64,000 nt of DNA from Spirochaetota bacterium. GTDB taxonomy: Bacteria; Spirochaetota; UBA4802; JAFGDQ01. The DNA lies in assembly GCA_043803405.1 (NCBI GenBank), contig JAZDKB010000004.1:64001-128000 (forward strand), read 5' to 3'. Under the pieces are notes generated by a model that saw only the letters and a list, made by a program, of their open reading frames with translations, ran no database searches and was not told the DNA's origin. Shown in pieces: positions 45,422 to 64,000 of this stretch. The position numbers were made by a program, and so were the translations under genes. Every line of letters begins with the position of its first letter. Positions within the stretch are counted from its first letter, which is position 1.

Positions 45422-45576
45422 GATTTTTTATCCATAAGAGTATTTTTTAAACTTAAAACAATAACATACATATATTAATAACAACGGCAATAATTTTTAT
45501 AAAAAAATAAATTTTTTTATTGACATAAAATCAAGTTAAATATATTTAGTATATATAACTTACTAAAGTAAATTTT

Positions 45577-45694
<118 letters not shown>

Positions 45695-45720
45695 TTGGCA
45701 TTATTCAATTATAAATTATA

Positions 45721-45750
45721 AAAACCCATGTTAACAGCATGGGTTTTTTT
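45721..45750 (+). terminator. Intrinsic terminator of 5S rRNA
   Basis: AAAACCCATG-TTAACAG-CATGGGTTTTTTT. Confidence 0.8.
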
Positions 45751-45895
45751 ATTAATAATTATTGCTGAAGACTGCATTCATTGTAGCAAAATACAGTGCT
45801 CATCAGACCAATACAAAATCATTAAAGACTTGCCATTAATAATTTTATTAATTTTAAAAATGTTCTTTGGGCAGAGAAATGTTTCCTATTAATAT

Positions 45896-45930
45896 AAAAA
45901 GCCGCAGTAAAATTTCTTTCTGCGGCTTTT
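45896..45930 (-). terminator. Intrinsic (likely bidirectional) terminator after the LipL21-like gene
   Basis: AAAAAGCCGCAG...CTGCGGCTTTT. Confidence 0.75.
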
Positions 45931-45959
45931 ATTTTTTATTCTTTAGTCGGAATTATATG

Positions 45960-46421
45960 CTATTTTGTTACGGCTGTTCCGCTATCGACTTCTTTTCTTA
46001 AATTTTTCTTTTCAACCTGGTATACTATTTCACAGTTGTCGTCATCATCAAAACTGGATTTTACAATAGTGCCACCTTTTACAAGACCGCCGAATTCTTT
46101 AGAAACAGCGATTCCTGTGGAAGCATAATCTGCAGCGCCTGCAGCACCTTCAAGTCTAGCACCTACAAATTTTTCAATGATTCTCTTTTGAGCCATAATC
46201 TGGGCTGCTTCCTGAGCTGTGCCTCTTCTCTGGATTTTATTTTGTAAACCTTCTTTCGGAACTCCTGTTGAGGTCACTCTGAATATGTCCGGACTAACCC
46301 AGCCTTCTGTAACAAAGCTTTCTCCTTTAACCTGTCCACCCATGGAACCTGAACCGCCTGAACATGCTGTAAAAACGATTGCAACAGCTGCAAGTAAGCA
46401 TAAGCTAAAGATTCTTTTCAT
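45960..46421 (-). CDS. LipL21-like surface lipoprotein
   Basis: Lipobox FTA-C; EGW, EKFVGA.LEGAAG.AD..STG..VS....G.VKG and C.IVY resemble leptospiral LipL21 (from recall); RBS AAGGAGG. Confidence 0.65.
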   Translation of the reverse strand: MKRIFSLCLLAAVAIVFTACSGGSGSMGGQVKGESFVTEGWVSPDIFRVTSTGVPKEGLQNKIQRRGTAQEAAQIMAQKRIIEKFVGARLEGAAGAADYASTGIAVSKEFGGLVKGGTIVKSSFDDDDNCEIVYQVEKKNLRKEVDSGTAVTK

Positions 46422-46720
46422 AAAAAAATCCTCCTTATTTTTTTGGGGTAAACCCTAAATTTCAAATCCGATCATAAATACGGATTTATAAATAACATAC
46501 TTTTACATCTAAAACTTATTATTCTAATAGATAATATCGATTGAAATCAAAGTCAAGTGTAAAAATGAAAATTTTTTTAAAAATCAGAATTAAAAAAAAT
46601 TAGTGATTTCCGACAAAAATTAAATAATTGTATATAATTTTTAATGCTTTTATAGAATAGTAGAATTTTTATTTATTTTATAATTCAGTTTATAAAAATA
46701 GCACATGTTAGGTTTTAAAA

Positions 46721-47332
46721 CTAACTTCTAGTAAAGACCTTGTTCCCATGTATTTTTAAACGATCTTCGCAAAAAAGTTTTATCGATTCCGGAAAAATTT
46801 TATGCTCTTCTTTTAGAATTCTGGCAGACAATGTTTCTACCGTATCGGTATCAAGAACTTTGACTGCGGTTTGTAAAATAATCGGGCCTGTATCTGTACC
46901 TTCATCTATAAAATGAGTTGTGCAGCCTGTGATTTTTACTCCTTTTTCAAACGCCTGTTTCTGAGCATTGGTTCCGGGAAAAGATGGAAGCAGGGCGGGA
47001 TGAATATTTATTATTCTGTTTTTGTACTCATTAACAAAATATGGACTAAGCACTCTCATGTAACCGGCTGCCACAACCAGGTCGGTATTATTCTGCTTGA
47101 GTAATTGCACCATTGCTTTTTCATGATCTTTTTTGGAAGTAAAGGATGCAGGGTTTACGAAAAACGAGTTCATACCGAAATCGTTTGCAAGATCAAGCGC
47201 TTTCGCTTCTTTTTTGTCGGAAATTAAAATCCCTAAAAGCGCATTAATTTCTCCTGAGGATATTTTTTCCGCAATTGCTTTAAAATTCGATCCGCGGCCT
47301 GAGGCTATAAATGATACTATCTTTTTTTTCAT
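46721..47332 (-). CDS. purN: Phosphoribosylglycinamide formyltransferase
   Basis: SGRGSN, AGYMR, INIHPALLP.FPG, D.GTDTGPII, EEH. Confidence 0.96.
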   Translation of the reverse strand: MKKKIVSFIASGRGSNFKAIAEKISSGEINALLGILISDKKEAKALDLANDFGMNSFFVNPASFTSKKDHEKAMVQLLKQNNTDLVVAAGYMRVLSPYFVNEYKNRIINIHPALLPSFPGTNAQKQAFEKGVKITGCTTHFIDEGTDTGPIILQTAVKVLDTDTVETLSARILKEEHKIFPESIKLFCEDRLKIHGNKVFTRS

Positions 47333-47694
47333 TAATTACTCCGCTATTTAAAGCTATAATTTCTTAATGCAGCTGGTTGCTAATTTTAAACAAGCTGTTG
47401 TTAAGATGAGTTGAAATTAAAATAAAAAAAATATTAACAGCAGTCAAATATAAATTCGATTGATGGTTCAGGATAATAATCAATCGTGATTTCCGGAATC
47501 GCATTTTACATAATGGAGGTTTTATTTAACTAAAAAAATGATTGATCTTTTTATTTTAAAATAATTATAAATAATTTGTAAAAATCGGCTGATTACTAAT
47601 GATACGGAGTTGGGCAATGATCAAATATAAAGAGATTATAGATGCCGGTGGTATATTATCCTGTTTTTTGAAAAATTCAACGAAATAATAATTT

Positions 47695-48357
47695 ATGAGC
47701 ATTCTATCGCTATGTGATGTCGGCAAATCATTTAGAAAAAGAAAGATTTTAAGTGAAATTAACCTGGAAATTGAATCGGGTTCTATTAATTCGTTATCCG
47801 GCAGATCTGGTTCGGGAAAGACAACCTTGCTGACTGTAATGTCAGGTTTGCTGAAGCCGGATTCGGGACAGGTGTTTTATAAAGGAAAGAACATATATAA
47901 ATGGGCCGATTTTAAAAGATCTGCCTACAGGAATAAAAACGTAGGATTTATTTTCCAGTCGTTCAATCTCCTTCCGGATTACACCGTTTATCAAAATATA
48001 GTTTATCCGGCAGTTCTTAATTTTTCCGCAAAAGGCATTAAACAAAAAGCTGATTATTTAATTGAATATCTTGGAATAAAAAACATTGAAAACCATTTGC
48101 CTGCCGCTATTTCCGGGGGCGAAAAGCAGCGGGCTGCTGTTGCCAGGGCAATGATGAATGATCCGGACATTATATTTGCCGACGAGCCCACTGGAAATCT
48201 TGATTCAGATACCGGTAAATCAATATTTGCATTATTTAAGGACATTCAAAAAAAGCATGAAATTAGTTTTATAATTGCTACTCATGATAAATATATTATC
48301 AGGAATTCGGATTATCATTATAGTTTAATGAACTGTAGCATTACAAATAAAACTTAG
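47695..48357 (+). CDS. LolD/MacB-type ABC ATPase
   Basis: [34 protein letters not shown]. Confidence 0.9.
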
Positions 48358-48433
48358 AGTGTATACTTAAACCTATTGCAATATCCGGATTCATTGGTAT
48401 TTTTTATAAATTATTTATTTATCCAGATTGATT

Positions 48434-49192
48434 ATGTTTGAAATAAAAAAAATACTTACTGCATGCATAAATTTTCCAGGCATTATTATACTTTTTTTGC
48501 TTATTACAGGTTTTTACGGTTTTATGAAAAAGTCACGGATTTTAAAATATAATTTAATTTGCGGAATTATTTTATATTGTTTGTCTGTATCTTATTTTAC
48601 AAATAATTTAATAGGATTTATAGAGCAGGAAAGAATTTATAAAGGCACGCCGGCTGTAGACGCAATGATCCTTCTCGGCGGGGGGACAGTGGATGGGGTT
48701 CCGGATATTTCCGGTAAAAGTATCCCGTCAACCGACATGGTTGTGCGTCTTGTTGATGCAGCAAGGCTATATAAAAAATATAAATATCCGATAGTGGTAA
48801 GCGGCGGGACCATCCAGGGCAGAGATAAGGAAACTGTTATTGTTGAAAGATTTTTGGCTGATTTAGGAGTAAAAAGAAAAGATATTATACTTGAAGACTC
48901 AAGCAGGGATACTGTTGAGAATGCTTTGAATGTTAAGGAAATTTTCAGGAAAAACGGATTCAAAAAGGGCTTGATAATAACATCCGCTTATCATTTAAGA
49001 AGAGCTGAGTTTATTTTTAGGAAGACTGGCATTGAAGTTTATCCGCATTCAAGCGGAATACTATCCGATAGAAATATTAAGCTGAGTCTATTTGATTTTT
49101 TACCCAATACTAATGAACTGGATAAAACTGCTGTTACATTGAAGGAAACATTCGGGCTGTTATTTTATTATATTAAATATGCAATTTTTTAA
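48434..49192 (+). CDS. YdcF/ElyC (DUF218) envelope protein
   Basis: LLGGG, VSGG, E..SRDT.ENA, TSAYH..RA. Confidence 0.85.
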   Translation: MFEIKKILTACINFPGIIILFLLITGFYGFMKKSRILKYNLICGIILYCLSVSYFTNNLIGFIEQERIYKGTPAVDAMILLGGGTVDGVPDISGKSIPSTDMVVRLVDAARLYKKYKYPIVVSGGTIQGRDKETVIVERFLADLGVKRKDIILEDSSRDTVENALNVKEIFRKNGFKKGLIITSAYHLRRAEFIFRKTGIEVYPHSSGILSDRNIKLSLFDFLPNTNELDKTAVTLKETFGLLFYYIKYAIF

Positions 49193-49278
49193 CGGGAACA
49201 TCTGGTAATGCTATTCAGGTGGAAAGTCTTTCTAAAAAAAATATTAGAACGTAATAACAGGCATTATGGAGGATTCAT

Positions 49279-50223
49279 ATTTATCATAAAAAAAGAATAC
49301 TTGTAACCGGCGGCGCGGGTTTTATCGGCTCTCATTTGTGCGAATTGTTGTTAAAACAGGGCAATGAAGTAATCTGCGTGGATAATTTTTTTACAGGCGC
49401 AAAGGTCAATATTAGTCATCTGTCCGAATATGATTCTTTTGAATTTATACGGCACGACATTGTTTTCCCGATATTTCTTGAAGTTGAAGAAGTATATAAT
49501 CTGGCATGTCCTGCTTCGCCGATTCACTATAGATATAATCCCGTTAAAACCGTTAAGACAAACGTAATGGGAGCAATTAACATGCTTGGGCTGGCCAAGC
49601 GCGTTAAAGCAAAGATTCTGCAGGCATCCACAAGCGAAGTTTACGGAGATCCGGATATTCATCCGCAGAAGGAGGACTACTGGGGCAGGGTTAACCCGAT
49701 TGGGCTGAGAGCCTGTTATGATGAAGGGAAAAGATGCGCTGAAACATTATTTTTCGATTATCACAGGCAGAATAAAGTAAATATACGTGTTGCAAGAATC
49801 TTTAATACTTACGGGCCGAAAATGATGCCGGATGACGGCAGGGTAGTGAGCAATTTTATTGTACAAGCCCTTAAGAACGAAGATATTACTATTTACGGCA
49901 AAGGTGACCAGACCAGGTCTTTTTGCTATATTGATGATTTAGTAAGCGGTCTGGTTAAATTAATGAATTCTCCGGATGATGTTATTGGACCTGTAAACCT
50001 GGGCAATCCGGTCGAAAATACAGTCCTGGATCTGGCTAAAATGATAATGAGCTTAACAAATTCAAGATCTAAAATTATTTTTCATCCGCTGCCTGAAGAT
50101 GATCCTGTAAGGAGAAAACCCGATATAGCACTTGCGAAAGAGAGACTGTCCTGGGAGCCATATATTAAAATTGAAGAAGGACTGCAAAAAACAATAGAAT
50201 ATTTTGATAAAATATTAAAATAG
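49279..50223 (+). CDS. UDP-glucuronate decarboxylase (UXS-like SDR); probable ATT start
   Basis: [14 protein letters not shown] lies upstream of the track's TTG start; [28 protein letters not shown]. Confidence 0.9.
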
Positions 50224-50233
50224 CTTTTTCGGG

Positions 50234-50755
50234 TTATTGAACCGCAGAAATTAAATCCAATGCCTGCTTTTTATAAGTGCCGGTATCGCTTTCAATTACT
50301 TTTTGCAGGTTTTCCCTGCATTTTTCGTTATTTCCTAAATTATAGTAACTGATAGCAATGTTCAGGAAGGCTGCGAATTTTATATAATTAAACTTTGCCA
50401 GGTCGTAATTTATAACAACTGAAAGTTGTGTAATCGCATCCTCGTATTTTCCGATTAAAAACAGGTTTTTACCGATATAATAGTTTGAAATTCCGACAAT
50501 AATGTTGTTGGTTTGATTGGTTTTAATGCATTCCTGAAAGGTTTCTATGGAAAGATCGTTCAGTCTGTCTTTATAGGCTATATAACTGGCATACAGAAGA
50601 TTTTTATTGTTTATAAATTTTTCGTTTAAAACAGTATCCCAGAATAATTTATCCTCTTCAATTAAGGCTATATTCTTTTTGTTTTGGCTGGCTTCGGTTG
50701 TATCACCGGTTATAATTAATGCTAATAAAAAAACAGGTAAAAATATCTTTTTCAT
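50234..50755 (-). CDS. Secreted TPR protein
   Basis: Signal peptide; TPR-like helices YYIG..LF..GKYEDA and NIAISYYNLG..EK. Confidence 0.7.
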   Translation of the reverse strand: MKKIFLPVFLLALIITGDTTEASQNKKNIALIEEDKLFWDTVLNEKFINNKNLLYASYIAYKDRLNDLSIETFQECIKTNQTNNIIVGISNYYIGKNLFLIGKYEDAITQLSVVINYDLAKFNYIKFAAFLNIAISYYNLGNNEKCRENLQKVIESDTGTYKKQALDLISAVQ

Positions 50756-50944: not shown

Positions 50945-50974
50945 TTGACAATTTAATTCACTTAAATTTATAAT
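50945..50974 (+). promoter_or_regulatory. Sigma70-type promoter of the PKS operon
   Basis: TTGACA (50945-50950)-N18-TATAAT (50969-50974); RBS GGAGAGG before ATG 51064. Confidence 0.75.
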
Positions 50975-50997: not shown

Positions 50998-51011
50998 ACT
51001 GACTTGTCAGT
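50998..51011. promoter_or_regulatory. Palindromic operator candidate (TetR-type)
   Basis: ACTGAC-TT-GTCAGT just downstream of the -10 box. Confidence 0.6.
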
Positions 51012-51063: not shown

Positions 51064-54000
51064 ATGTCCAAGAAAGACAACAGATACCCGCAGGAAGGCA
51101 TTGCTATTATTGGTTTGGGGTGTTATTTTCCCAAAGCCAGAGGAATTGATCAATTCTGGCAAAATGTACTAAATAAAGTTAATTGTATAACGGAAATTCC
51201 GAAGGGACGATGGGACCCGGCTGTATATTATAGCCCTGATAAAAATGCTCCTGATAAGACATATTCAAAAATCGGGGGATTTGTTGATCCTTTTGATTTC
51301 AGCATACTTGCAAAAAAGTTTAAAATTCCTCCAATGATATTAAACGCAATGGATGTTACGCAGAAGTTTGCTTTACTGGCAACAAGCGATGCTCTTGAGG
51401 ATGCCGGATACGGCAACAAGGAATTTGACAGGTCAAGAACTGCTGTCATTATCGGCAATTCGATGGGTGGCGATAAATCTGATTATTCGGATTTCAGGGT
51501 ATTCTTAAACGAAGTTGAATATAATTTAAGGAACAGCCCTGCTTTTTCCAGGATCGATCCCGCAACGCAAAATAAAATCATTGAAGAATCCGTATATAAA
51601 CTGAAATCCGGCATTTTGAATATTACCGAGGATACAATGCCCGGAGAGCTTTCCAATGTTATAGCAGGCAGAATTTCGAACGCTTTAAATCTTACGGGAC
51701 AGAGTATTACGGTGGATGCAGCCTGTGCATCTTCTTTCGCAAGCTTTCAGGAAGCGGCAAGAGGATTAAGATGCCATGACTTTGATATGGTAGTGGCTGG
51801 CGGCACTGATTATATGATGGGGCCAAGCCCGTATATTAAATTCAGCAAGATAGGAGCTCTTTCTGCGGATGGCTCAAGACCCTTCGATGCCCGAGCAAAC
51901 GGTTTTGTAATGGGAGAAGGTACCGGTATTTTTATTCTTAAAAGAGTAAGTGACGCAAGGAGAGACGGGAATAAGATATATGCGATACTTGCCGGCATTG
52001 GTGCCTCTGCAGACGGGAAAGGGAAGGGCATTACGGCTCCTAATCCCAAAGGGCAACACCTGGCGGTTTCCAGGGCTCTCGCAGAAGCAGGCTACGGTCC
52101 TGAAACGGTTCAGTATGTTGAAGCGCACGGGACTTCGACTATTGTCGGCGACCTGGCGGAAATGGAAGGACTGCTGAGTGTCTGGGAAAATAAAGGCATA
52201 AAAAATAACTCAATAGGAATCGGATCGGTAAAATCGAATATCGGCCATTTAAAAGCAGCTTCAGGTTCTGCTTCCATAATTAAACTCGCATTAGCTCTTA
52301 AGAATAAGATAATGCCCCCTTCAATAAATTACGAGACTCCGAATCCGAACATTGCCTTTGGCAGGATTCCGTTCAGAGTAATAACCGATCCAACAGAGTG
52401 GCCTAAAGGAATTGACGGCAATCCGAGAAGGGGAAATGCAAGCTCCTTTGGTTTTGGTGGTACGAATTTTCATGCAGTATTTGAAGAAGATACCGGTGAC
52501 AATGGAATGCCTGCGCCTGTAAAATATTATTCGGGTGCGGAATTAACTCAAAATGAAAGTTCTCCGGTTATAAGAGGAGTGCAAAGCTCCGCCCCGCAAA
52601 CAACGGTTTGCGATTATAGTCATAAGAGATATGAATTATCCGAAGAAAACAATAAAAAGCTGCATGGTGAAGCGATAATTATAGGCGGTTCATCATGGAA
52701 TGATATAAATGACAGACTGGCTTCTCTTAAAAAGGAAATAACCGGCAGCAGCATTACAATGCGCGATCTCTTTAAAAGATTCAATATGCAAAGCAATTCT
52801 ATGGACTACAGGCTTGGGATCGCAGCCTTTTCACTTGATGAATTTCTGGGAAAATTTAATTCGGTTCCTGAAGGATTCGAGAATATAAAACGCAGAATGG
52901 TGTTGAAAAACAAAGGCCTTTTTTACGGCGAGCATCTTCTGGAAAAAAAGAAATCCCTGGGAAAAATTTGCTTCCTGTTCCCAGGACAGGGAAACCAGTA
53001 CATAAATATGTTCAAGGATCTTTATAATAAATATAAAGTCTTTAAAGATACATTCGATGAAGCTGACCGTATAATGTATGATTTTATGGGAAAGGGAATT
53101 TCCGATCTTTTTTTCCAGAATGACGATATTTCCGGTAGCGACCTGGAAGCTGCTGAGGAAATGGTTCAGCCTACTGAAATTACCCAGCCGGCGGTATTGG
53201 CTGTAGATTATGCCATGTTCAAGCTATTGCGTAGCTTTGGGATAAATCCGGATGTTGCGGTAGGACATAGCCTTGGTGAATACGGCGCATTGATCGCTGC
53301 TGAAGTTATGAGTTTCAGGGACGCCCTGTATGCGGTTTCTGCGAGAGGCAAAGAGCTGGAGAACATAAAGTGGGATGAAATAGGAAAAATGCTGAGCGTG
53401 TCAGCTTCAACAGAAAAGGCAGAACAGCTTTTGAAAGGAATAACAGGTTATGCAATAATTGCGAATAAGAACTGCAATTCCCAGGTAGTAGTAGGCGGTG
53501 AAGGTAAGGCGGTTCTTCAGGTTATGGACAAATGCAAGGCCGAGGGCATACCTGCCCAGCTTCTCCCTGTATCGCAGGCATTCCATACCAGGGTACTGGA
53601 GCCTGCTGGCCCATCATACAGAAGAACGCTGGAAAATCTCCGGATTAATAGCCCGAAGATAGATATAGTCGCAAATCTTACAGGCGATTATTATCCAAAA
53701 GGTGAAAATGCCCGCGGAAAGATAATAGATATTCTTGTGCAGCATATATCCAATCCTGTTGAATTTATGAAATCAGTTCAAAGGATGTATTCGGACGGAG
53801 TAGATGTTTTTATCGAAGCGGGACCAAAGAGGAATCTCTCTTCATTTATTTTAAATATTCTTGATAAGCAACCCCATCTTTCGATTGCAACGAATCATCC
53901 GAAAAGAGGCGGTATAGGCGCGTTTAATGATACACTTGCTGCGATGTCGACTCACGGGTTCGATATTGACTGGAACGGCATTGATGAGAATGGAAATAGA

Positions 54001-57000
54001 ATGAATGATCCGGACTGGAGATACAGAGATAAATTTCTCGGCAAACCGGAGATAATTACAACAGCATCCGCTGTTATTGAAAAGAAAACTGAAGCTAAAG
54101 GATTTGATATGAGCAATAACGAACAGAAAAAATATCTGAATAATACTGATTACAGCAATGTTTCTATAGATAAGTTTTACGGTGATTTCCAGTCGAAGCA
54201 GAAGAAGCTTCTTGAAGACGTCATGGATATTTACTCTAAAAAGAGCGAGGAACTCCTTAATGAACAGATGAGGGATGCTCTTTATTATAAGAAGGAAGTT
54301 GAGAGGAATAAGATTAATTTTGACAGAGTAATGATCTCGGGCGTGGCAATGGGGCTTCCGGGCGAACGCTTCAAGGTATTTGATGAGCATGTCTACGACA
54401 GGTTGGCCGACGGCATTAATATGATTGATCCTGTTCCTCAGGATGTAAGGGAAAGGATAGCGGAAAAAAATATTACCCGTCTTTTAAAGAAAAGCGACGG
54501 TGAAGCTTCATTTGAAACAATAACTGATAAAGCAGATGTTGTGAAACTGTGCGGGAGAAAAGGCCAGTTTGATCTTCACGAAGAATACGGTGTTGCTAAG
54601 GAATTTATTGAAAACATTGAATCTTCCACTCAGCTTGCCATAGCTGCAACGATTGAAGCGCTTAGGGATGCAGGTATTCCGCTGGTGATGAACTACAAGC
54701 GGACATCGACAAATAAACTGCTGCCCGCGTTCTGGGGGCTTCCCGAAGACATGCAGGAAGAAACCGGGATTATTTTCGGCGCGGCATTCCCGGGTGAAAA
54801 TATGGTTGTTGAAGAATTGTCCAAAGCGCTTGCATATAAATACGGGAGTAAAACAAAAAGGGAACTGGTTAAACTTTATTCATCAATTATTGAAAAAATT
54901 AAAGATGAAAAAGTCAGGGAATTGCTTACTGAATGGTATGCAGAAAATTATTCAATATTAAAAGACGGGATAGGTGAAGAAAATCTTTATCAATTCAACA
55001 GAAAATTCATATTTAAAATTCTGGTTATGGGACACTCTCAGCTGGCGTACTTTATAAAGGCAAAAGGCCCGAACATTCACATTAATGTAGCGTGTTCTTC
55101 AACAACAGCCGGTATAGGTATTGCCGAAGACTGGATACGTACCGGAAGGGTGAAGAGGGTTATTGTAGTGGCTGCGGATGATGTTACTACTAATACGTTT
55201 CTTGAGTGGATACTGAGCGGCTTCCTTGCAGTAGGTGCAGTCAGCACTGAGGAGAAGATTGAAAATGCTGCCATACCGTTCGATAGAAGAAGAAACGGTA
55301 TGATTGTAGGCATGGGCGCAGCATGTCTTGTTGTTGAAGCTGAATCCGAGATCAGAAAAAGAGGGATGGAGCCAATAGTAGAAGTAATATCGACAGAATT
55401 CGGGAACAGCGCGTTTCACGGAACAAGGATAGATAATGTTCACATACGCAGAGTAATGGAAAGAGTTATTTCCAAAGCTGAGGACCGGTTGAATTTGAAA
55501 CGCAGCGATATTGCGAAAAAAATGCTTTTCATGTCACACGAAACTTACACACCTGCACGCGGCGGAAGCGCATCCGCAGAGATCAATGCATTAAGGAATA
55601 CTTTCCAGGACAGTTATAAAGATATTATAGTTTCAAATACAAAGGGCTTCACCGGCCATACTATGGCGGTAGGCATTGAAGATGTTGTTGCTGTAAGGGC
55701 GCTTCAGACAACAAAAGTGCCCCCGATTGCCAATCACAGAGAAGTTGATCCTGATCTTGGAATGATAAACCTAAGTAAAGGCGGGAAATATGAGCATCTT
55801 CAGTATGCTTTAAGGCTGGGGGCAGGATTTGGCTCTCAGATAGCTATGAGCGTGCTGAAGCTTGTTAGCAGAAAAGAAGACCGTATTATTAATAAGGGCG
55901 CATATTCTGAATGGCTGAAAAAGATGTCGGGGATTGAGAATCCGCAGATCGAAGTAGTAAAGAAGACTTTACGCATTAAAGACGATGGTTCTATAATGAA
56001 AAAAGACAGGGCTGCATTTGTTGAAGCTGCAGCCACTGAAACTCCTATAGATGACGATATTGCGGTGCGCTATGCCGATTCATCGGCTGCGGCGCAAAGG
56101 CAGCAGGTTGCGGCATTTCAGCCGCAGGTTTCTCCGGCAGCCGCTCCTCAGACTGCACAGGCAGATGAAGCAATTAAGCAAAAGATAATGAAGATAGTAG
56201 GCGAGAAGACGGGATATCCGGAAGACCTGATTGAGTTTGACCTGGATATGGAAAGCGATCTTGGAATAGACACTGTTAAGCAGGCAGAGATGTTCGGCGT
56301 AATCCGCGAGACATTCGGTATTGCCGCGGACGAAACTATCCGGATAAAGGATTTTCCGACTCTTAATCATGTAATCGGATTTGTGAAAACAAAGTCGCCG
56401 CAATTCGCGGGACTGGCTGCGGCCTATACGGCGCCGGCAGTTCAGACAGTATCTGCTCCGGCTGCTGCAGTCGCCGGGGCTCCTGCGGGCGCGCTTGACG
56501 GCATCAAAAAGAAAATAATGAAGATAGTAGGCGAGAAAACAGGCTATCCTGAAGACCTGATCGAGTTCGATCTTGATATGGAAAGCGATCTTGGAATAGA
56601 TACTGTTAAGCAGGCAGAGATGTTCGGCCTGATACGCGATACTTTTAATATACCTGCTGATGAGAGCATCCGGATAAAGGACTTCCCGACGCTTAACCAC
56701 GTAATCGGGTTTGTGAGATCAAAGTCGCCGCAATTCGCTGGAATGCCGGATGCTGCGTTTGCTGCGCCTTCTGTTCAGGCTCAGCCTGCTGCTATGCAAG
56801 CGCAGTCAGTATCTGCTCCGGCTGCTGCGGTCGCCGGAGCTCCTGCGGGCGTGCTTGACGACATCAGAAAAAAAGTGATGAAGATAGTAGGCGAGAAGAC
56901 AGGCTATCCGGAAGACCTGATCGAGTTTGACCTTGATATGGAAAGCGATCTTGGAATAGATACCGTTAAACAGGCAGAGATGTTCGGGCTTATCCGCGAG

Positions 57001-60000
57001 ACGTTCAATATTCCGACTGATGAGAGCATAAGGATAAAGGATTTTCCGACTCTGAACCATGTTATTGGATTTATTACGTCAAAGTCGCCGCAGTTCGCTG
57101 GAATTGCAGCGGCTGCGTTAGTTGCGCCTTCTGTTCAGGTTCAGCCTGCTGCAATACCTACACAGGCTGTAGCTGTTCCGGCTGCTGCTGTCGCCGGGGT
57201 GCCTGCTGACGGGCTTGATAATATCAGAAAGAAAATAGTTAAGATAGTTGAAGAGAAGACAGGTTACCCTGAAGACCTGATAGAGTTCGATCTTGATATG
57301 GAGAGCGATCTTGGAATAGATACTGTTAAGCAGGCAGAGATGTTCGGCCTGATACGCGAAACATTCGGTATACCTTCTGACGAGACTATCCGGATAAAAG
57401 ATTTTCCGACTCTTAATCACGTGATCGGGTTCGTAAGGACTAAGTCGCCGCAATTTGCAGGAATGGCACAGGCCGCTCCTGCAGCAGCGCCGGTTGTTCC
57501 TGCACAGCCAGCTGCTTCACCTGCGCAGGCTGTATCTGTTCCGGCTGCTGCAGTCGCCGGTGTGCCTGCGGGCGAACTGGACGACATCAGAAAAAAAATA
57601 GTAAAGATAGTTGAAGAGAAGACCGGTTACTCCGAAGACCTGATCGAATTTGATCTTGATATGGAAAGCGATCTTGGAATAGATACGGTTAAACAGGCAG
57701 AGATGTTCGGCCTGATACGTGAAAGATTTAATATTCCTGCTGACGAGACTATCCGCATAAAGGATTTCCCGACTCTTAATCATGTGATCGGGTTCGTAAA
57801 ATCAAAGTCTCCGCAATTTGCAGGAGCTGCTACTCAGACGAAACCTATTGAAGAGCAACAGACTGTAACAACAGAAGTTAAGGAGGCTGTAAAAAGCAAT
57901 ATTAAAAGAATGACTATCGAGATGCGCGAAGAGCCTCTTGATAAGAAAGGAACGCCCAGATTCAACTTTAAAGGGCTTAACATACTTATAACTGATGACG
58001 GCAAAGGCGTAGCAACTGCAATCGAAAAAACTTTGAAAGAAGCTGAAGCCAGTGTCGAGATTATCAATCAAACCGAAATGGAAGATGTTGGTAATTTAAA
58101 GAAAGCAATCGAGAGAGCAAAGAAGTCCGGAAAAATAAATGGCGTCATTCATCTGACTTCATTTGAAGAATCTAAATCTCTTGATGATATGAGCTTTGAA
58201 GACTGGAGAAAAAATATTTTCAGAAGAGTAAAATCCCTGTATTATATTTCGAAAACACTTCAGCAGGATATTAAAGAAAGCGGCAAAAATAATACTGCAT
58301 TTCTTGTGTCTGTAACGGACATGGGAGGCACATTCGGAGTTAACGATTTTACATCGAACAATCCGATTGGCGGCGGCGTGAGCGGACTTACAAAAGGACT
58401 GGATAAGGAATTTAACCAGACTAAGAAGGAAGTCCTGGTAAAGGCAATTGATTTATCTTCATTGGATAAACCGGCTGCTGCTGCGAAGACAATACTTAGC
58501 GAGATTCAGTTCGGAAGCCGGAGAGTCGAAGTTGGATATGTTGGCAGAACCAGGATGGTCCCACAGGTTATTTATAAGGACATTGATTTCAGCATAGAAC
58601 CGAGAACAGCTCTTGGCGAAGGATCGGTCTTTGTTGTCACAGGAGGCGGCTACGGCATCACAAGCGCAATTGCCAAGGATATAGCAAAAAATTTAAAGGC
58701 AAAGCTCGCGATCATTTCACTTGAGACTTTGCCTGAGAATATTACGGAGCTTGCTAATCTTGATGCGAACGGACTAAAGCAGCTTAAGGATAAAGTCGTT
58801 GCCGAACTTAAGTCGAAGAATGAGCGCGTTACTCCTGTGATGATAGACAAGGAATACAGTAAATACACGATCGCTATCGATATTTACAAAAATGTTGAGG
58901 AAATGAAAAGGCTCGGAGCGCCCGATGTTGCGTATTACAGCTGCAACGTAATGGATAACGCGGCCATGACTGATATAATCAATAAGATCAGGGAAAGATT
59001 CGGCAGGATCGATGCCGTAATACACGGCGCAGGCATAAACAAGGATAAATTCCTTGAAGATAAATCCTTTGAGGACTTTTCGCTTGTTGTAGATGTAAAG
59101 GCTGACGGGTGTTACAATATAATGGAAGCAGTAAAGAAAGACGGGGTAAAGGCTCTCGTTACTTTTGCTTCAATATCCGGACGTTTCGGGAACATCGGAC
59201 AGACGGATTATTCGTCGGCGAATGACCTGCTCAACAAATACGTGGAGCATTCGAACAGAAGATTTGCGCCGGATATGAAGGCAGTGTCCATGAACTGGAG
59301 CGGATGGCTGGGCGTCGGTATGGCAACCCGCGGAAGCATAGCCAAGATATTCGAAGAAAGCGGCGTTGACATGATCCCGATGGAAGAAGGGATAACCAAG
59401 GTAAGGGAAGAATTGCTGTATGGCAATGATGCCGAAATCATAGTGGCAGGCAGGGTAGGAGCAATAGACAGCGATAACATCATAGCAGGCGATAAAAATA
59501 ATGATTATCTGGCAGCTGTCAAACGCCTTGAATCAAAGGATCAGTTTCCTTTAATTGATGAGATAATAAACCTGAAGCCGAATCGTTCAATCGTCGTTAA
59601 AAAGAAGCTCGATACAGAAGCGGATGTTTATTTGAAAGATCACGCTATTGAAAACATACCGTATTTTCCTGCTGTTATGGGAATCGAGACATTTGCGGAA
59701 ACAGCGGTTCTTTTATTTCCGAAAAAACGCGTAAAATTAATGAAAGATATTAAGTTCAATATCCCGATTAAAATTTTTAAAGGCAAGCCGCTGGATCTTA
59801 TTACGACTGCGGAAAAAGTTAGCGAGCAGAATGGAGAGATTACACTAAAGGCCAGAATAGAAACCGAGTTCTTTAACAAAGCCGGAGTAAAGCTTGGCGA
59901 CAATAAACTGCATTTTGAGGCAGAGATTGTGCTTTCGGACAAGGGCGCTGACAAGAAAAGTTTAAAATCGGATGGAGTCGATATTGAGTTAATACAGAAA

Positions 60001-60462
60001 GCAAAAGGTAAAAAAATAATTAACGAAGAAGAGATTTATAAGAGATTCTTCCATGGTCCTAAATTTCAGGTACATGCCGGAGTAATTAAAATAAAAGAAG
60101 AAATGATATATGGTTTACTCTCTGCCAAAAATGCGAAGGGTGAAGATCATTTTACTTTTGTAAAGAAGCCGCATTTTATTGCCAATCCGATGGCTATTGA
60201 AGCAGCGTTCCAGAACGCCGGGCTTTACGCAATGACCAAAGAAAATAAAATGTCGCTTCCGGATGGAATAGATGAACTTGTATTCGTTCAGATTCCTGCA
60301 GGCGCAAAAGAGCTTTTTATGAGCGCTAAATACATTAAACATGATGATCTGAAACACGAATACGATACGGTTATACTTGACGGTCAGGGAAATGTTTATT
60401 CGGTAATGAAAGGTTACAGAATGATAAACATAGGAGACTTGAAAGAAAATGAGAAGTTTTAG
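51064..60462 (+). CDS. Iterative type I PKS/FAS, PfaA-related: KS-AT-KS-ACPx5-KR-DH
   Basis: KS1 DAAC221/EAH355/GH395; AT FPGQG, GHSLG, QAFH; KS2 VAC1344/SH1492ETY/TGH1532; five DLGIDTVKQ ACPs; KR TGGGYGI, GQTDYSSAN; DH DHAI..IPYFP, FHGP.FQ. Confidence 0.92.
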   Translation: MSKKDNRYPQEGIAIIGLGCYFPKARGIDQFWQNVLNKVNCITEIPKGRWDPAVYYSPDKNAPDKTYSKIGGFVDPFDFSILAKKFKIPPMILNAMDVTQKFALLATSDALEDAGYGNKEFDRSRTAVIIGNSMGGDKSDYSDFRVFLNEVEYNLRNSPAFSRIDPATQNKIIEESVYKLKSGILNITEDTMPGELSNVIAGRISNALNLTGQSITVDAACASSFASFQEAARGLRCHDFDMVVAGGTDYMMGPSPYIKFSKIGALSADGSRPFDARANGFVMGEGTGIFILKRVSDARRDGNKIYAILAGIGASADGKGKGITAPNPKGQHLAVSRALAEAGYGPETVQYVEAHGTSTIVGDLAEMEGLLSVWENKGIKNNSIGIGSVKSNIGHLKAASGSASIIKLALALKNKIMPPSINYETPNPNIAFGRIPFRVITDPTEWPKGIDGNPRRGNASSFGFGGTNFHAVFEEDTGDNGMPAPVKYYSGAELTQNESSPVIRGVQSSAPQTTVCDYSHKRYELSEENNKKLHGEAIIIGGSSWNDINDRLASLKKEITGSSITMRDLFKRFNMQSNSMDYRLGIAAFSLDEFLGKFNSVPEGFENIKRRMVLKNKGLFYGEHLLEKKKSLGKICFLFPGQGNQYINMFKDLYNKYKVFKDTFDEADRIMYDFMGKGISDLFFQNDDISGSDLEAAEEMVQPTEITQPAVLAVDYAMFKLLRSFGINPDVAVGHSLGEYGALIAAEVMSFRDALYAVSARGKELENIKWDEIGKMLSVSASTEKAEQLLKGITGYAIIANKNCNSQVVVGGEGKAVLQVMDKCKAEGIPAQLLPVSQAFHTRVLEPAGPSYRRTLENLRINSPKIDIVANLTGDYYPKGENARGKIIDILVQHISNPVEFMKSVQRMYSDGVDVFIEAGPKRNLSSFILNILDKQPHLSIATNHPKRGGIGAFNDTLAAMSTHGFDIDWNGIDENGNRMNDPDWRYRDKFLGKPEIITTASAVIEKKTEAKGFDMSNNEQKKYLNNTDYSNVSIDKFYGDFQSKQKKLLEDVMDIYSKKSEELLNEQMRDALYYKKEVERNKINFDRVMISGVAMGLPGERFKVFDEHVYDRLADGINMIDPVPQDVRERIAEKNITRLLKKSDGEASFETITDKADVVKLCGRKGQFDLHEEYGVAKEFIENIESSTQLAIAATIEALRDAGIPLVMNYKRTSTNKLLPAFWGLPEDMQEETGIIFGAAFPGENMVVEELSKALAYKYGSKTKRELVKLYSSIIEKIKDEKVRELLTEWYAENYSILKDGIGEENLYQFNRKFIFKILVMGHSQLAYFIKAKGPNIHINVACSSTTAGIGIAEDWIRTGRVKRVIVVAADDVTTNTFLEWILSGFLAVGAVSTEEKIENAAIPFDRRRNGMIVGMGAACLVVEAESEIRKRGMEPIVEVISTEFGNSAFHGTRIDNVHIRRVMERVISKAEDRLNLKRSDIAKKMLFMSHETYTPARGGSASAEINALRNTFQDSYKDIIVSNTKGFTGHTMAVGIEDVVAVRALQTTKVPPIANHREVDPDLGMINLSKGGKYEHLQYALRLGAGFGSQIAMSVLKLVSRKEDRIINKGAYSEWLKKMSGIENPQIEVVKKTLRIKDDGSIMKKDRAAFVEAAATETPIDDDIAVRYADSSAAAQRQQVAAFQPQVSPAAAPQTAQADEAIKQKIMKIVGEKTGYPEDLIEFDLDMESDLGIDTVKQAEMFGVIRETFGIAADETIRIKDFPTLNHVIGFVKTKSPQFAGLAAAYTAPAVQTVSAPAAAVAGAPAGALDGIKKKIMKIVGEKTGYPEDLIEFDLDMESDLGIDTVKQAEMFGLIRDTFNIPADESIRIKDFPTLNHVIGFVRSKSPQFAGMPDAAFAAPSVQAQPAAMQAQSVSAPAAAVAGAPAGVLDDIRKKVMKIVGEKTGYPEDLIEFDLDMESDLGIDTVKQAEMFGLIRETFNIPTDESIRIKDFPTLNHVIGFITSKSPQFAGIAAAALVAPSVQVQPAAIPTQAVAVPAAAVAGVPADGLDNIRKKIVKIVEEKTGYPEDLIEFDLDMESDLGIDTVKQAEMFGLIRETFGIPSDETIRIKDFPTLNHVIGFVRTKSPQFAGMAQAAPAAAPVVPAQPAASPAQAVSVPAAAVAGVPAGELDDIRKKIVKIVEEKTGYSEDLIEFDLDMESDLGIDTVKQAEMFGLIRERFNIPADETIRIKDFPTLNHVIGFVKSKSPQFAGAATQTKPIEEQQTVTTEVKEAVKSNIKRMTIEMREEPLDKKGTPRFNFKGLNILITDDGKGVATAIEKTLKEAEASVEIINQTEMEDVGNLKKAIERAKKSGKINGVIHLTSFEESKSLDDMSFEDWRKNIFRRVKSLYYISKTLQQDIKESGKNNTAFLVSVTDMGGTFGVNDFTSNNPIGGGVSGLTKGLDKEFNQTKKEVLVKAIDLSSLDKPAAAAKTILSEIQFGSRRVEVGYVGRTRMVPQVIYKDIDFSIEPRTALGEGSVFVVTGGGYGITSAIAKDIAKNLKAKLAIISLETLPENITELANLDANGLKQLKDKVVAELKSKNERVTPVMIDKEYSKYTIAIDIYKNVEEMKRLGAPDVAYYSCNVMDNAAMTDIINKIRERFGRIDAVIHGAGINKDKFLEDKSFEDFSLVVDVKADGCYNIMEAVKKDGVKALVTFASISGRFGNIGQTDYSSANDLLNKYVEHSNRRFAPDMKAVSMNWSGWLGVGMATRGSIAKIFEESGVDMIPMEEGITKVREELLYGNDAEIIVAGRVGAIDSDNIIAGDKNNDYLAAVKRLESKDQFPLIDEIINLKPNRSIVVKKKLDTEADVYLKDHAIENIPYFPAVMGIETFAETAVLLFPKKRVKLMKDIKFNIPIKIFKGKPLDLITTAEKVSEQNGEITLKARIETEFFNKAGVKLGDNKLHFEAEIVLSDKGADKKSLKSDGVDIELIQKAKGKKIINEEEIYKRFFHGPKFQVHAGVIKIKEEMIYGLLSAKNAKGEDHFTFVKKPHFIANPMAIEAAFQNAGLYAMTKENKMSLPDGIDELVFVQIPAGAKELFMSAKYIKHDDLKHEYDTVILDGQGNVYSVMKGYRMINIGDLKENEKF
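56170..57830 (+). repeat. Five tandem ACP-coding repeats with Ala/Pro-rich linkers
   Basis: Near-identical units spaced 330, 360, 360 and 363 nt apart. Confidence 0.95.
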
Positions 60463-61273
60463 GAACACATATTATGATATAAAAGAGCATCATAATCATA
60501 CACTTAAATTTCTTAATTCCAGTATCGCGTTTATCGATATCGAAAATGTCAAAAAGCGAATGAGCAAAAGAGGCGAGCATGCTTATGATGATTTTCTGAC
60601 CGATTGGGAAAATTCTTATATTAACGAACTAAAAGTTCCTAAAAGGAAAATGGATTTTCTTTGCGGAAGGCTTGCAGGCAAAAGAGCTGTCAGAAGACAT
60701 CTGATAAAAAATTCCTATGCAGGTATTGAAGATGGGAAAGAACATCCGGTTTTTAAAGACATTGAGATAAAAAGAACAGTAACCGGAAGGCCGCTTGTAT
60801 TTATTAAAGACGGATCATCTCCAAACGGCTCATCCGAGTACCATGTTTCAATTTCGCACACGGAAGGCGTTGCAGCTTCTCTTGTGTCAAATAAGATGGA
60901 TTGCAAAGGCATCGGCATAGATATTGAAAGGATAGAAGAAAGGGACACTTCGTTGTTAAATGTGGCTTTTACGGAACAGGAAATAAGTAAATTACTAAAA
61001 AATTTTTCCGGACAAAACGGAAATACAAAAATAATATTTGAGAATAATGTAGCTAAATACTGGTCAATAAAAGAAGCGGTAATGAAGTGCATGGGTGTTG
61101 GAGTAAATATTGATCTGAAGGATATCGAAATAACGGTTTCCGGCGATTATAATTCGGTAGTGAGTTTAAAGAATGAAGCTCAGAGTAGATTTGAGCTGCT
61201 AAAAGGGAGTGATTTAAAAATAGAGTCTACAAAAATTGAAAAGTTTATGATTTCCATAGCCTGTCTGTATTAG
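60449..61273 (+). CDS. Sfp-type 4'-phosphopantetheinyl transferase
   Basis: FLCGRLAGK, GRP, SISHT, GIDIE, WSIKEAVMK; overlaps the PKS stop by 14 nt. Confidence 0.88.
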   Translation: MRSFRNTYYDIKEHHNHTLKFLNSSIAFIDIENVKKRMSKRGEHAYDDFLTDWENSYINELKVPKRKMDFLCGRLAGKRAVRRHLIKNSYAGIEDGKEHPVFKDIEIKRTVTGRPLVFIKDGSSPNGSSEYHVSISHTEGVAASLVSNKMDCKGIGIDIERIEERDTSLLNVAFTEQEISKLLKNFSGQNGNTKIIFENNVAKYWSIKEAVMKCMGVGVNIDLKDIEITVSGDYNSVVSLKNEAQSRFELLKGSDLKIESTKIEKFMISIACLY

Positions 61274-61281: not shown

Positions 61282-62220
61282 ATGCAAAATGAAAAGTCAA
61301 AATATATTTTAAATGACGGGCTTCTCGACGAACCGTTAATTGAATCGGAATTTAATTCCGAACTTTTGGAAGTAACAAGTTCTGCTGCTTTTAAAGCTAA
61401 TGATAAATCGGCAAGGATAATTAGCGATCATATTTACAAGTATTTCGAAAAAGTAAGCAATGATCTTTATAATGCTAACAGTTCGAAATTAATACCCGAT
61501 CTGATAAGTATTTTAATACAGGTAATGAAATCGTCAGGTATTGAAAAAGTATCGTTTCGTGTGGATATATTAGGCAATATTATCGATTTTTTTAAACATG
61601 ATGGCAAGCCGCCCAAAAAGCCAAAAAGCAAAGACAAACGCCAGGCTGTTCTCGATGCTGCGATGATTGTTTTTTCAAGAACCGGATTTCACGAAACCCA
61701 TGTAGATGAAATCGCGGAGCTGGCCGGGGTGGCGAAGGGCACGGTATATCGTTATTTCCAGAGCAAGGAAGATATTTTAAGAGAGATTATTAAAGCCAAT
61801 AACGAAGTGCTGACAAAAGATCTAATGATTATTTTCAATAAGGACGGGCATATACTTGAACTTATAAAAGAAGCTATTGAATACTATGTGGAATTTTTTG
61901 ACAGCAATAAGGATCTTTATAAAATACTTACACATGCGCCGTGGATATTGAATGATATAAGTGATCATTTTTATAAAAATATTATTTCTCATCTTAATGT
62001 TGTGAGGAGAAGAGTTTTTACTTTAACAAGAGAAGGCGTGGTTAAACCGACCGATTTTTATACTGTATTCTACGGCATTTTCGGATTTATTGACGGAGTA
62101 ATACAGAAGTGGTTCAGGCGGAACTGCGAATATTCATTAAAGGAGGAGCTATCGGTTATAATTGAAGTATTATTTTACGGATTTGTTTCGGAAGGTGAGA
62201 GAAAAGAAAAATTTATTTAA
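61282..62220 (+). CDS. TetR/AcrR regulator with an N-terminal extension of about 115 aa
   Basis: KRQAVLDAA..VF...GF..T.VDEIA..AGVAKGTVYRYF.SKE. Confidence 0.88.
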   Translation: MQNEKSKYILNDGLLDEPLIESEFNSELLEVTSSAAFKANDKSARIISDHIYKYFEKVSNDLYNANSSKLIPDLISILIQVMKSSGIEKVSFRVDILGNIIDFFKHDGKPPKKPKSKDKRQAVLDAAMIVFSRTGFHETHVDEIAELAGVAKGTVYRYFQSKEDILREIIKANNEVLTKDLMIIFNKDGHILELIKEAIEYYVEFFDSNKDLYKILTHAPWILNDISDHFYKNIISHLNVVRRRVFTLTREGVVKPTDFYTVFYGIFGFIDGVIQKWFRRNCEYSLKEELSVIIEVLFYGFVSEGERKEKFI

Positions 62221-62357: not shown

Positions 62358-64000
62358 ATGGCAAAACTAAAATACAATGACTTAATGTTCAATTTTGAAA
62401 AATGCGTACAATGGCAGGACATCGCAGACGCATTGGGCAAAGAAAACCACTTTGATGAATATATGATGACAATGAAAACAGTGGGAGACTTTGTCCAGAA
62501 CCTGGTTGAACCCTTTGCAGAAGAGATTGACAATGATGAATGCAGGGTTGAGACCGACAGTAACGGCAAAAATAAAGTAAGAATAGCCGAGCCCATGGCC
62601 AAGCATTTTGAGAAGCTGAAAGAACTGGGTCTTTTTTGCGGAGTTACAATACCTGAAGAGCAAGGCGGTTTTAATTTCCCGCTGACTGCATTTTTTGGAT
62701 TCGGCGAAGTAATTACAATGGGGGATTCAAGCCTAGGACTTACACCCATGCTTAACGAAGGATGCGCACAGGTAATCTCCGAGTATGCGAACGAAAAAAT
62801 ATGCGCGGAATATCTGCCAAAGCTTATTTCCGGAGAAAGACTTTGTGCAATGGGCTTAACCGAGCCTAGTGCCGGAAGCGACCTTGTTGCTGGAATACAG
62901 ACAACGGCAAGACCTGTTGACAAGGAAAAGGATAAAGACAAAGCTGAAAGGATAAGCGAACTTGAGAAACTGGGAGACGTTTATATTATTAACGGCACAA
63001 AGATATTCATATCAAACGGATACGGAGATGTGCTTACGCTTGCAAAAATAAATGACGGAATCAGCATGTTTTTAGTATATGAAGAAGATAAAGTAGTTCC
63101 CAGAATAGAGCACAAATTAGGCATAAGGGGCTCTGCAACATGCGAAATATTTTACGACAATTCCCCCGGAGTTTTAATCGGCGAGCTGGGCGGTGGTTTA
63201 ATACCGAACATGCTGAAGCTGATGAACATTGCAAGACTCGGAGTCGCCACTCAGGGCCTCGCGATAGGAGAAAGAGCCCACAGATACGCTATTGAGTATG
63301 CTAATGTCCGTGTTCAGTTCGGCGTTCCAATTATTCAGCATTCTCCGGTACGCCAGATAATATTTGAAAACGAGATCGAACTGCAGGCTTCGCGCGCCCT
63401 TGTTTATACCGGAGCATATTATTTTGATATGCGCCTTGCGCTAAATAAAAGATTAAAGACGCTTAAAGAAGGCACACCGGAGTATACAGAAGTAAAAAAC
63501 AAGCAGAGAAAATATTCCAGAATTGCGGAGATATTAATATCGCTTTCCAAATATGATGCAACGGAACTCGGAAATAAGGTAGCAAGCTCATCATTGCAGG
63601 TTTTCGGCGGATACGGTTTCACCAGGGAATATCCAATGGAGCGTTTCTACAGAGACGTAAGAATTACAAATATTTATGAAGGAACTACCCAGATACAGGT
63701 TGAGCAGGTATTTAACGAGACGTTCTATGTCGATAAAGTCGGACTTATCAACCAGTTCAAACTTGGCGGGAATAAAGGATTTGTCGAGAATGATAAGAAC
63801 AGAGTATTCCTTGATATCTTTCTTAATGAATATAAAAATGAAATACTCTCGAAATCTGCGGGTAATCCTGTATTGTCAGGGTTGATAAATAAAGTCGATA
63901 AAATGAGAGAATATTTAAAAGAAGCCAGACAAATACTTTTTATTGAAGAAAGAAACCGCGGAAAAGAGCTGGGCAGGAAATATAACGCGATATATCAGCA
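62358..64000 (+). CDS. Acyl-CoA dehydrogenase (runs off the window end; not in ORF track)
   Basis: RBS GGAG; AMGLTEPSAGSD, INGTKIFISNG, KLGIRGSATCE, QFG.PI, QVFGGYGF..EY..ER.YRD.RITNIYEGT. Confidence 0.93.
   Translation, partial: MAKLKYNDLMFNFEKCVQWQDIADALGKENHFDEYMMTMKTVGDFVQNLVEPFAEEIDNDECRVETDSNGKNKVRIAEPMAKHFEKLKELGLFCGVTIPEEQGGFNFPLTAFFGFGEVITMGDSSLGLTPMLNEGCAQVISEYANEKICAEYLPKLISGERLCAMGLTEPSAGSDLVAGIQTTARPVDKEKDKDKAERISELEKLGDVYIINGTKIFISNGYGDVLTLAKINDGISMFLVYEEDKVVPRIEHKLGIRGSATCEIFYDNSPGVLIGELGGGLIPNMLKLMNIARLGVATQGLAIGERAHRYAIEYANVRVQFGVPIIQHSPVRQIIFENEIELQASRALVYTGAYYFDMRLALNKRLKTLKEGTPEYTEVKNKQRKYSRIAEILISLSKYDATELGNKVASSSLQVFGGYGFTREYPMERFYRDVRITNIYEGTTQIQVEQVFNETFYVDKVGLINQFKLGGNKGFVENDKNRVFLDIFLNEYKNEILSKSAGNPVLSGLINKVDKMREYLKEARQILFIEERNRGKELGRKYNAIYQ

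Follow-up and report, generated by a model that had tools for sequence, protein, structure and literature searches.

A Type R megasynthase with a fused FabF-type ketosynthase, a candidate reducing fatty-acid synthase of a spirochaete

The closest described counterpart of the system considered here is the Type R synthase catalogued by Shulse and Allen in 2011 (PMC3098273). In the accessible text of that paper it consists of a ketosynthase (KS), a malonyl acyltransferase (MAT), a chain-length factor (CLF), three to six acyl carrier proteins (ACPs) and a ketoreductase (KR), with a phosphopantetheinyl transferase (PPTase); it is listed from Roseiflexus, Elusimicrobium, Koribacter and Solibacter, its product is uncharacterised, and a core fatty-acid role is proposed only for Types M and S. 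The accessible parts of PMC3250452, PMC2613244, PMC10033605 and PMC8841776 give no Type R product, and no characterisation was found in the literature searched, most subscription journals being beyond reach. The window analysed here, 64,000 nucleotides of a Spirochaetota genome (assembly GCA_043803405.1, contig JAZDKB010000004.1, positions 64,001 to 128,000 of the forward strand), carries a synthase of this layout, encoded by an open reading frame of 3132 aa at 51064-60462 on the + strand. A preliminary description, made from the letters of the window, had not connected the architecture with Type R.

We consider it quite probable that the enzyme is a reducing fatty-acyl synthase. The fuller scheme, in which it would be a de novo, iterative, malonyl-dependent and fully reducing fatty-acid synthase, with both KS domains elongating and the adjoining acyl-CoA dehydrogenase running in reverse as an enoyl reductase (ER) fed by electron-transfer flavoprotein (ETF), is in our judgement, from sequence comparison, an even proposition. 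The synthase and its acyltransferase (AT), dehydratase (DH) and other domains lie in the window as follows.

51064..60462, + strand: Type R megasynthase, KS1-AT-KS2-ACPx5-psiKR-KR-DH, 3132 aa (open-reading-frame list, residue check, Pfam)
51085..52503, + strand: KS1, type I ketosynthase, with C221, H355 and H395 (Pfam, alignment, tree)
52957..53943, + strand: acyltransferase with GHSLG (S736), R761 and an AFH motif (Pfam, alignment)
54316..55878, + strand: KS2, FabF-type ketosynthase fused into the synthase, with C1344, H1492, K1527 and H1532 and the family-specific E1493 and S1591
56161..57813, + strand: five tandem acyl carrier domains (LGIDT motif) with Ala/Pro-rich linkers
57886..59463, + strand: structural and catalytic ketoreductase, with K2679, S2703 and Y2716 (Pfam, alignment)
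59536..60459, + strand: PKS-type double-hotdog dehydratase, with H2860 and with E3046 and Q3050 invariant (Pfam, alignment)

Pfam recovers two KS-N and two KS-C domains, one AT, five ACPs, a KR and a PKS-type DH, and shows neither an ER nor a thioesterase in the polypeptide. The preliminary description had read the same order, KS-AT-KS-ACP5-KR-DH with long insertions in the second KS, and had assigned a Cys-His-His triad to each KS with a His-His spacing of 40 residues in both; all six residues and their motifs are where it put them. It had also seen no thioesterase and no pfaB, pfaC or pfaD, and the absence of these three extends to the whole genome. With no PfaB, PfaC (KS-CLF-DH2) or PfaD, a standard polyunsaturated fatty acid (PUFA) synthase is ruled out, as that description had argued. 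Profile searches of the genome, which is 94% complete, revealed neither another type I KS nor PfaD nor an ER of the fused type, and its one other AT is a stand-alone FabD. By the rule that links AFH-type motifs to malonyl specificity, the AT of the synthase is predicted to be malonyl-specific. The family is large, 3813 of 7998 candidates matching with an E value no higher than 1e-20, and close homologues, 74-76% identical, are labelled Spirochaetes or Spirochaetota by their sources. Conservation was counted in the best 120 of the 3813, to which all counts of homologues below refer: the KS1 triad is invariant in the 118 that contain KS1, the AT Ser is kept in 118 of 120 (the other two are gaps), and the KR Tyr and DH His are invariant in every homologue that covers them (103/103 and 98/98).

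KS2 occupies about residues 1085-1605, and its insertions relative to FabF measure 27, 19, 36 and 11 residues. Its Cys, His, Lys1527 and His are invariant in 120/120 homologues and thus cannot be put down to chance or decay. It is divergent from KS1 and from type I KS domains, yet within its own family it is as conserved as KS1 (median identity to the query 51% vs 50%). Its best sequence matches among solved structures are FabF enzymes (E 4.5e-24), and all 16 of its NCBIfam matches are to stand-alone ketosynthases, with no type I PKS model among them; against the FabF model TIGR03150 it scores 144.6 bits and does not reach the cut-off of 493.75. The predicted KS2 model (mean pLDDT 68) was compared by overall fold, its insertions being too uncertain for a pocket to be read, and its closest folds are FabF and mitochondrial KAS, at a TM-score to the target of about 0.75-0.8. 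A KS phylogeny, one of the checks that the preliminary description had proposed, sets the two domains apart: in an unrooted tree of 28 rows, PfaA and PfaC references not being among them, KS2 and the type II ketosynthases split from KS1, CLF and a modular KS with an ultrafast bootstrap (UFboot) of 100. An invariant Glu directly follows the first His of KS2, and the Asp present a few residues later in FabF and KS1 is lost. Since long-form relatives, described below, hold a true CLF lacking both Cys and His alongside KS2, KS2 is not itself a CLF. The triad, the long-form CLF and the tree together rule out a CLF or a decayed duplicate of KS1, in line with the earlier suspicion, and since the triad is intact in all 120 homologues, including those of Roseiflexus and Elusimicrobium, the CLF label fails for the whole family. 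KS2 is likely a captured FabF-type enzyme, active to judge from its conservation, and it carries the Cys-His-Lys-His set of the FabF catalytic mechanism on a FabF-like fold, in the sequence and in the predicted model; it works like FabF at most and is not a FabF. Of the two roles suggested for it earlier, that of a second elongase fits best, given this catalytic set and the grouping with type II enzymes, and we rate it somewhat probable; condensation of two chains as a release step finds little support.

The reductive step was approached through the neighbourhoods of 90 loci, made up of the window, nine loci from its class and, out of 562 confirmed genome matches, the 80 best. Counts were taken from the 62 in which the synthase is flanked by 2.5 kb or more on each side, the other 28 being too short. 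Of the 62, 42 have just a dehydrogenase, 9 just PfaD and 6 just a fused ER (tandem, NMO/FabK-like), 5 have none of these, and no locus has two; the exclusivity seen in these counts concerns bacteria, since a metagenome scan for archaeal-form neighbourhoods gave seven short loci and none that could be used. Over all 90, the figures are 56 with a dehydrogenase, 10 with PfaD, 6 with a fused ER and 18 with none. None of the 15 ER- or PfaD-bearing loci has a dehydrogenase beside the synthase. A genome-wide check of four of the five reductase-free loci, L103 being left out, found the dehydrogenase on another contig in G097, PfaD elsewhere in the genome in G107, and no reductase in G111 and G140. The fused-ER profile is matched by 21/120 homologues. 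Because relatives carry a fused ER or PfaD and otherwise an adjoining dehydrogenase, the pathway is probably complete and reducing, so that the absence of an ER reported in the preliminary description is right for the polypeptide and probably wrong for the pathway.

Within the window's class, 24 of 103 genomes yielded KS2, and in 11 of the 24 the synthase is of the short form (KS1 with an E value under 1e-200; in G072 it lies in two pieces on separate contigs). Exactly these 11 genomes, seven of which belong to one family and, as kin, are not independent, have the window's dehydrogenase; it adjoins the synthase in 10 of the 11 and is missing from the 13 carriers of the class whose only synthase is of the other form. 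A fused ER was confirmed in 5 of those 13, the remaining 8 lying outside that check. The long forms of relatives run ER-ER-KS-CLF-AT-KS2-ACPn-KR-DH, and seven of them (L024, L026-L028, L032, L033 and L123), 3700-4100 aa in length, show tandem ER, KS, true CLF, AT and KS2; G072 and G097 hold both long and short forms. In a quick-mode tree, the dehydrogenases that adjoin synthases in other phyla group in a clade by themselves (14 rows, SH-aLRT 100), so that a dehydrogenase was apparently recruited twice and, by its sequence, the window's is a separate lineage. Orthology between the two was tried and rejected, as a match of 419 bits fell to 143, third in the genome, once two close relatives were removed from the profile. 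The dehydrogenase keeps its catalytic Glu, E441, in 10/10 sequences. ETF genes stand in 12 of the 42 dehydrogenase loci. In the window's genome the genes for ETF alpha and beta lie at G000:C4:176205-177958, while C42 carries a fused ETF and C13 an Fe-S oxidoreductase. We judge it probable that the dehydrogenase serves as the enoyl reductase of the synthase, acting in the reductive direction on an ACP-bound substrate.

The synthase is the first of four genes on one strand, in the order synthase, PPTase, TetR, dehydrogenase, and the remaining features of this operon are these.

50945..50974, + strand: sigma-70-type promoter-like site, TTGACA-18-TATAAT, 12/12 to consensus (a consensus match, its function inferred)
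50998..51011, no strand assigned: palindromic operator-like site ACTGAC-NN-GTCAGT, between promoter and start codon (pattern search)
60449..61273, + strand: 4'-phosphopantetheinyl transferase, overlapping the synthase stop (Pfam, NCBIfam)
61282..62220, + strand: TetR-family regulator with an N-terminal extension (best NCBIfam match FadR, far under cut-off)
62358..64000, + strand, running on 202 bases beyond the window to G000:C4:128202: acyl-CoA dehydrogenase, 614 aa, with E441 in YEGT; proposed as an enoyl reductase acting in trans

Promoter-like sites number 5 in 400 bases, vs 3.3 in shuffles, and the one perfect site is that at 50945-50974; neither a terminator nor a strong promoter was found between the TetR gene and the dehydrogenase. 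The translation of the PPTase reads VSISH at the hShxH motif, and TGRP, without a P0 motif. The same TetR family adjoins the long-form synthases of relatives, and the TetR protein likely binds the palindrome. Two perfect copies of the operator occur in the genome, vs 0.18 expected, the second before a carboxyltransferase gene, and the same pairing of synthase and carboxyltransferase recurs in G002, G003 and G004, with one perfect operator each, before the synthase operon, in G006 and G097. In all, six genomes hold 10 perfect operators, 6 before the synthase operon and 4 before the carboxyltransferase; a reversed control pattern gave 2 sites in the same five relative genomes (G002, G003, G004, G006 and G097). 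The carboxyltransferase is the conserved second target, since in G002 the gene on the divergent side of the second site is a different one. Among 21 other upstream regions, the exact 10-base core is present in 7, with one mismatch in 4 and not at all in 10; these last 10 include the regions upstream of the short forms in G097 and G072 and each of the 7 dehydrogenase regions. The genes upstream of the operon (39806-50755 in the window) look unrelated: an FtsX-like permease, an NAD-dependent ligase, Lnt, a purN-like formyltransferase, an ABC ATPase, DUF218, a nucleotide-sugar epimerase and a TPR protein. A separate protein of 1893 aa elsewhere in the genome (L009:3553-9231, G000:C37), with similarity to AMP ligases and to short-chain dehydrogenases/reductases, is probably nonribosomal peptide synthetase-like.

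The carboxyltransferase raises the question of extender supply. Neighbour families recurring in five or more loci are acetyl-CoA carboxylase (ACC), dehydrogenase, PPTase, ETF, PfaD, Fe-S oxidoreductase and TetR, and an ACC-type gene is present in 41 of the 62 loci, its representative enzyme being a single chain with an ACC central domain. Single-chain ACC-type proteins of 1840-1950 aa (L074:11899-17424, L025:2-5731) follow the synthase in many phyla, and in G075 and G088 accD, accA and an oadA-like gene lie directly upstream of it. No biotin carboxylase was found in the window's genome, nor in 4 of the 5 family members tested; the genome does hold a stand-alone carboxyltransferase and an OadA-like subunit, as well as a single biotin carrier, each on a contig of its own (L128-L130; G000:C30, C53 and C43). 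Because no biotin carboxylase was found, malonyl-CoA would probably arise by transcarboxylation, after the established transcarboxylase model.

The cycle that we propose would run as follows. The PPTase would arm the five ACPs, the co-regulated carboxyltransferase would make malonyl-CoA, and the AT would load malonyl groups; KS1 and KS2 would divide the condensations by chain length, KS1 most likely starting and KS2 extending. KR and DH would then yield trans-2-enoyl-ACP, which the dehydrogenase would reduce with electrons from ETF. The TetR protein would repress the synthase and carboxyltransferase loci through the palindrome, coupling the operon to malonyl-CoA supply. Release, with no thioesterase or PlsX present, might be by AT transfer to CoA or by direct acyltransferase use, which is a guess.

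Whether such an enzyme is the main source of membrane acyl chains depends on what else the organism has. No FabH, FabZ or FabF scored over cut-off in the window's genome, and no FabK, FabI-like motif or PlsX was found there; a FabV search gave no match, its positive control being silent too, and FabI and FabV were otherwise sought by motif and by a short-chain dehydrogenase/reductase (SDR) profile. The fabF gene is usually located between acpP and rnc, and here a housekeeping-type acpP lies directly beside rnc with no fabF between (L005:5251-6290, G000:C16). In the class as a whole (103 genomes), FabF is over cut-off in 3 genomes, no synthase carrier among them, and FabH and FabZ in 5 each, with one carrier each; the one-contig relative G060 has a long form and no FabF-like, FabH or FabZ match. 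In the family of the Bellilinea locus L034, 48 of 121 sampled genomes have the synthase and none of the 121 has FabF. On this evidence the chances that the Type R synthase is the organism's main membrane acyl-chain source seem to us evenly divided.

A number of observations count against this reading. Outside the class, type II fatty-acid synthesis (FAS II) often coexists with the synthase: in 50 of the 80 named loci's genomes, with overlap determined by hand, FabF was found in 34 (26 over cut-off), FabZ in 22 and both in 18, which rules out the notion that Type R always replaces FAS II. In the class, 8 of 24 carriers have a FabF-like match at 1e-85. Neither Type R nor a FabF-like match is found in 53/103 class genomes or 73/121 of the Bellilinea L034 family, so that lack of FAS II does not demand a Type R enzyme; many of these organisms either live without both systems or are incompletely assembled. 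The window's genome also has a specialised type II lipid cluster (L001, G000:C36:80205-93779) that holds its only PlsY, with a pair of FabF-like enzymes that score 379 and 328 bits against a cut-off of 494, and with a FabZ-like protein, an ACP, a thioesterase, a DH-PPTase fusion, a CrtD-like flavoprotein and a B12 radical SAM protein over the TIGR04072 cut-off; this cluster could supply membrane chains. As to reduction, the direction of the dehydrogenase is not readable from sequence, the ETF genes are not at the window's synthase locus, and genome searches of G111 and G140, carriers of Elusimicrobiota type, returned neither PfaD nor FabK. Moreover, reductase types track lineage, the fused ER occurring among the loci only in the window's class and PfaD only in Chloroflexota; hence the 62 loci stand for a much smaller number of independent events, and a single operon transferred as a unit could yield the 11/11 pattern. 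Finally, the co-regulated carboxyltransferase is MmdA/PccB-like, at 785 bits and under cut-off, so that acetyl-CoA is not established as its substrate.

The alternative that survives these data best, and that we still regard as unlikely, keeps the reducing chemistry and changes its purpose: the product would be a specialised secondary lipid, such as a very-long-chain acid, a wax or a diol precursor, and membrane acids would come from FAS II, the C36 cluster or uptake. The coexistence of FabF and FabZ in 18 of 50 carriers, the placement of the only PlsY in the C36 cluster and not at the synthase, and the half of the class that has neither system all suit it, as do the characterised relatives tabulated by Shulse and Allen, which in the accessible text make chains of at least 20 carbons (PMC3098273). 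Against this, no tailoring, export or head-group gene is among the families that recur beside the synthase in at least five loci, and at 1e-85 a FabF-like match is lacking in 16 of the 24 carriers in the class.

A second alternative gives KS2 a different task. Pks13, laid out ACP-KS-AT-ACP-TE and partnered by an acyl-AMP ligase, and OleA are KS-fold enzymes that join two long chains, and KS1 might likewise build chains that KS2 joins in a final Claisen release, giving a long-chain ketone or branched beta-keto acid. We think this improbable. A synthase without a thioesterase, a KS2 set on a long stem with large insertions and its invariant Glu beside the first His, the N-terminal ACPs of some homologues, and a carboxyltransferase that might in principle carboxylate long acyl-CoA all speak for it. 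However, the Glu accompanies the loss of the Asp and so may be a structural swap, KS2 retains the Cys-His-Lys-His set that elongating enzymes have, neither an acyl-AMP ligase nor an OleBCD-like gene recurs nearby, relatives carry true AccA/AccD or single-chain ACC, and the Pks13 model scores 441 bits vs a cut-off of 2100. Least probable in our view is an oxidative dehydrogenase that desaturates, recycles acyl groups or supplies a starter, beside a synthase that leaves double bonds or has an unrecognised reductase: oxidation is the family's common role, the closest solved structures are ordinary acyl-CoA dehydrogenases, the ETF and Fe-S oxidoreductase neighbours also suit beta-oxidation and the FabV control was silent, but this account leaves unexplained both the 0/15 dehydrogenases at ER- or PfaD-bearing loci and the absence of the enzyme from the 13 class genomes that have only the other form.

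The preferred reading, a reducing synthase that makes ordinary fatty acids, can be extended to the family, and here we are tentative and put the extension at rather less than even. On this broader reading, Type R, a PfaA-like core with a captured FabF, would make ordinary fatty acids by a route so far unrecognised and spread through archaea and many bacterial phyla, with a swappable last step (a fused FabK-like reductase, PfaD, or an ETF-fed dehydrogenase recruited at least twice), and would be the main source in lineages without FAS II, namely the window's spirochaete family, Anaerolineaceae and Elusimicrobiota. Its archaeal part would be the one-chain ER-KS-AT-KS-ACP-KR-DH-PPTase protein of Asgard archaea, as an archaeal type I fatty-acid synthase complete in itself. 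Some proteins of roughly 3580 aa (P0013, P0019, P0020, P0026 and others), several of them named Heimdallarchaeota or Asgard by their sources, read ER-ER-KS-AT-KS2-ACP2-KR-DH-PPTase, a layout that makes them candidates for a complete one-chain fatty-acid synthase. Thermoplasmatota forms have the PPTase fused and no ER, and ACPs lie between KS1 and AT, or at the N terminus, in L050, L054, L066, L076 and L092 and in P0025, P0047 and P0092. If these proposals are true, they would explain how some anaerobes make fatty acids without FAS II, add a new kind of enoyl reductase tied to electron-transfer flavoprotein, and give Asgard archaea a candidate type I fatty-acid synthase. The operon is a small gene set with three key residues (C221, C1344 and E441), and the question is directly testable.

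Set against known systems, the synthase is closest to Type R, with which it shares a single pfaA-homologue gene, the order KS-MAT-(KS-like)-ACP3-6-KR (five ACPs here) and a downstream PPTase with hShxH and without a P0 motif; its KS2 is 49-51% identical, in the same architecture, to proteins of a Roseiflexus sp. and of Elusimicrobium posterum, which are not the paper's exact strains. It is unlike Type R as described in the accessible text of PMC3098273 in that the second domain is there labelled CLF and no DH is listed, whereas here a full triad is followed by a DH; for Type R, that text is also silent on any reductase, dehydrogenase, regulator or operator. The present system is set apart as a variant by the lack of a biotin carboxylase, the two-locus regulon and the separate dehydrogenase lineage. 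With the PUFA synthases PfaA-E (Types A and B) it shares type I KS-MAT, tandem ACPs, KR, DH and PPTase, and since it passes the cut-off of the PfaA model TIGR02813 (1050.3 vs 1010.1 bits), automatic annotation would call it PfaA, a name easily given in error throughout a family of thousands; it differs from them in a genome without PfaB, PfaC and PfaD and in a FabF-type KS with an intact triad between AT and ACPs. FabF supplies the best sequence and fold matches of KS2 and the same catalytic set; unlike FabF, KS2 is only about 20% identical to it, has four insertions, reads HETxT for HGTST and GFGS for GFGG, and is fused into a type I protein. Unlike Pks13 and OleA systems, the synthase has no thioesterase or N-terminal ACP, and no acyl-AMP ligase or OleBCD recurs beside it. 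A precedent for the proposed reduction is the anaerobic fatty-acid synthesis of Euglena gracilis, in which, according to the accessible text of PMC6587861, an acyl-CoA dehydrogenase and ETF reduce enoyl-CoA, with rhodoquinone. The likeness to our scheme lies in an ETF-fed dehydrogenase that reduces an enoyl intermediate during chain building; the Euglena system, as described there, is a mitochondrial reversal of beta-oxidation on CoA, whereas the chains proposed here would be ACP-bound and built by a malonyl-dependent megasynthase.

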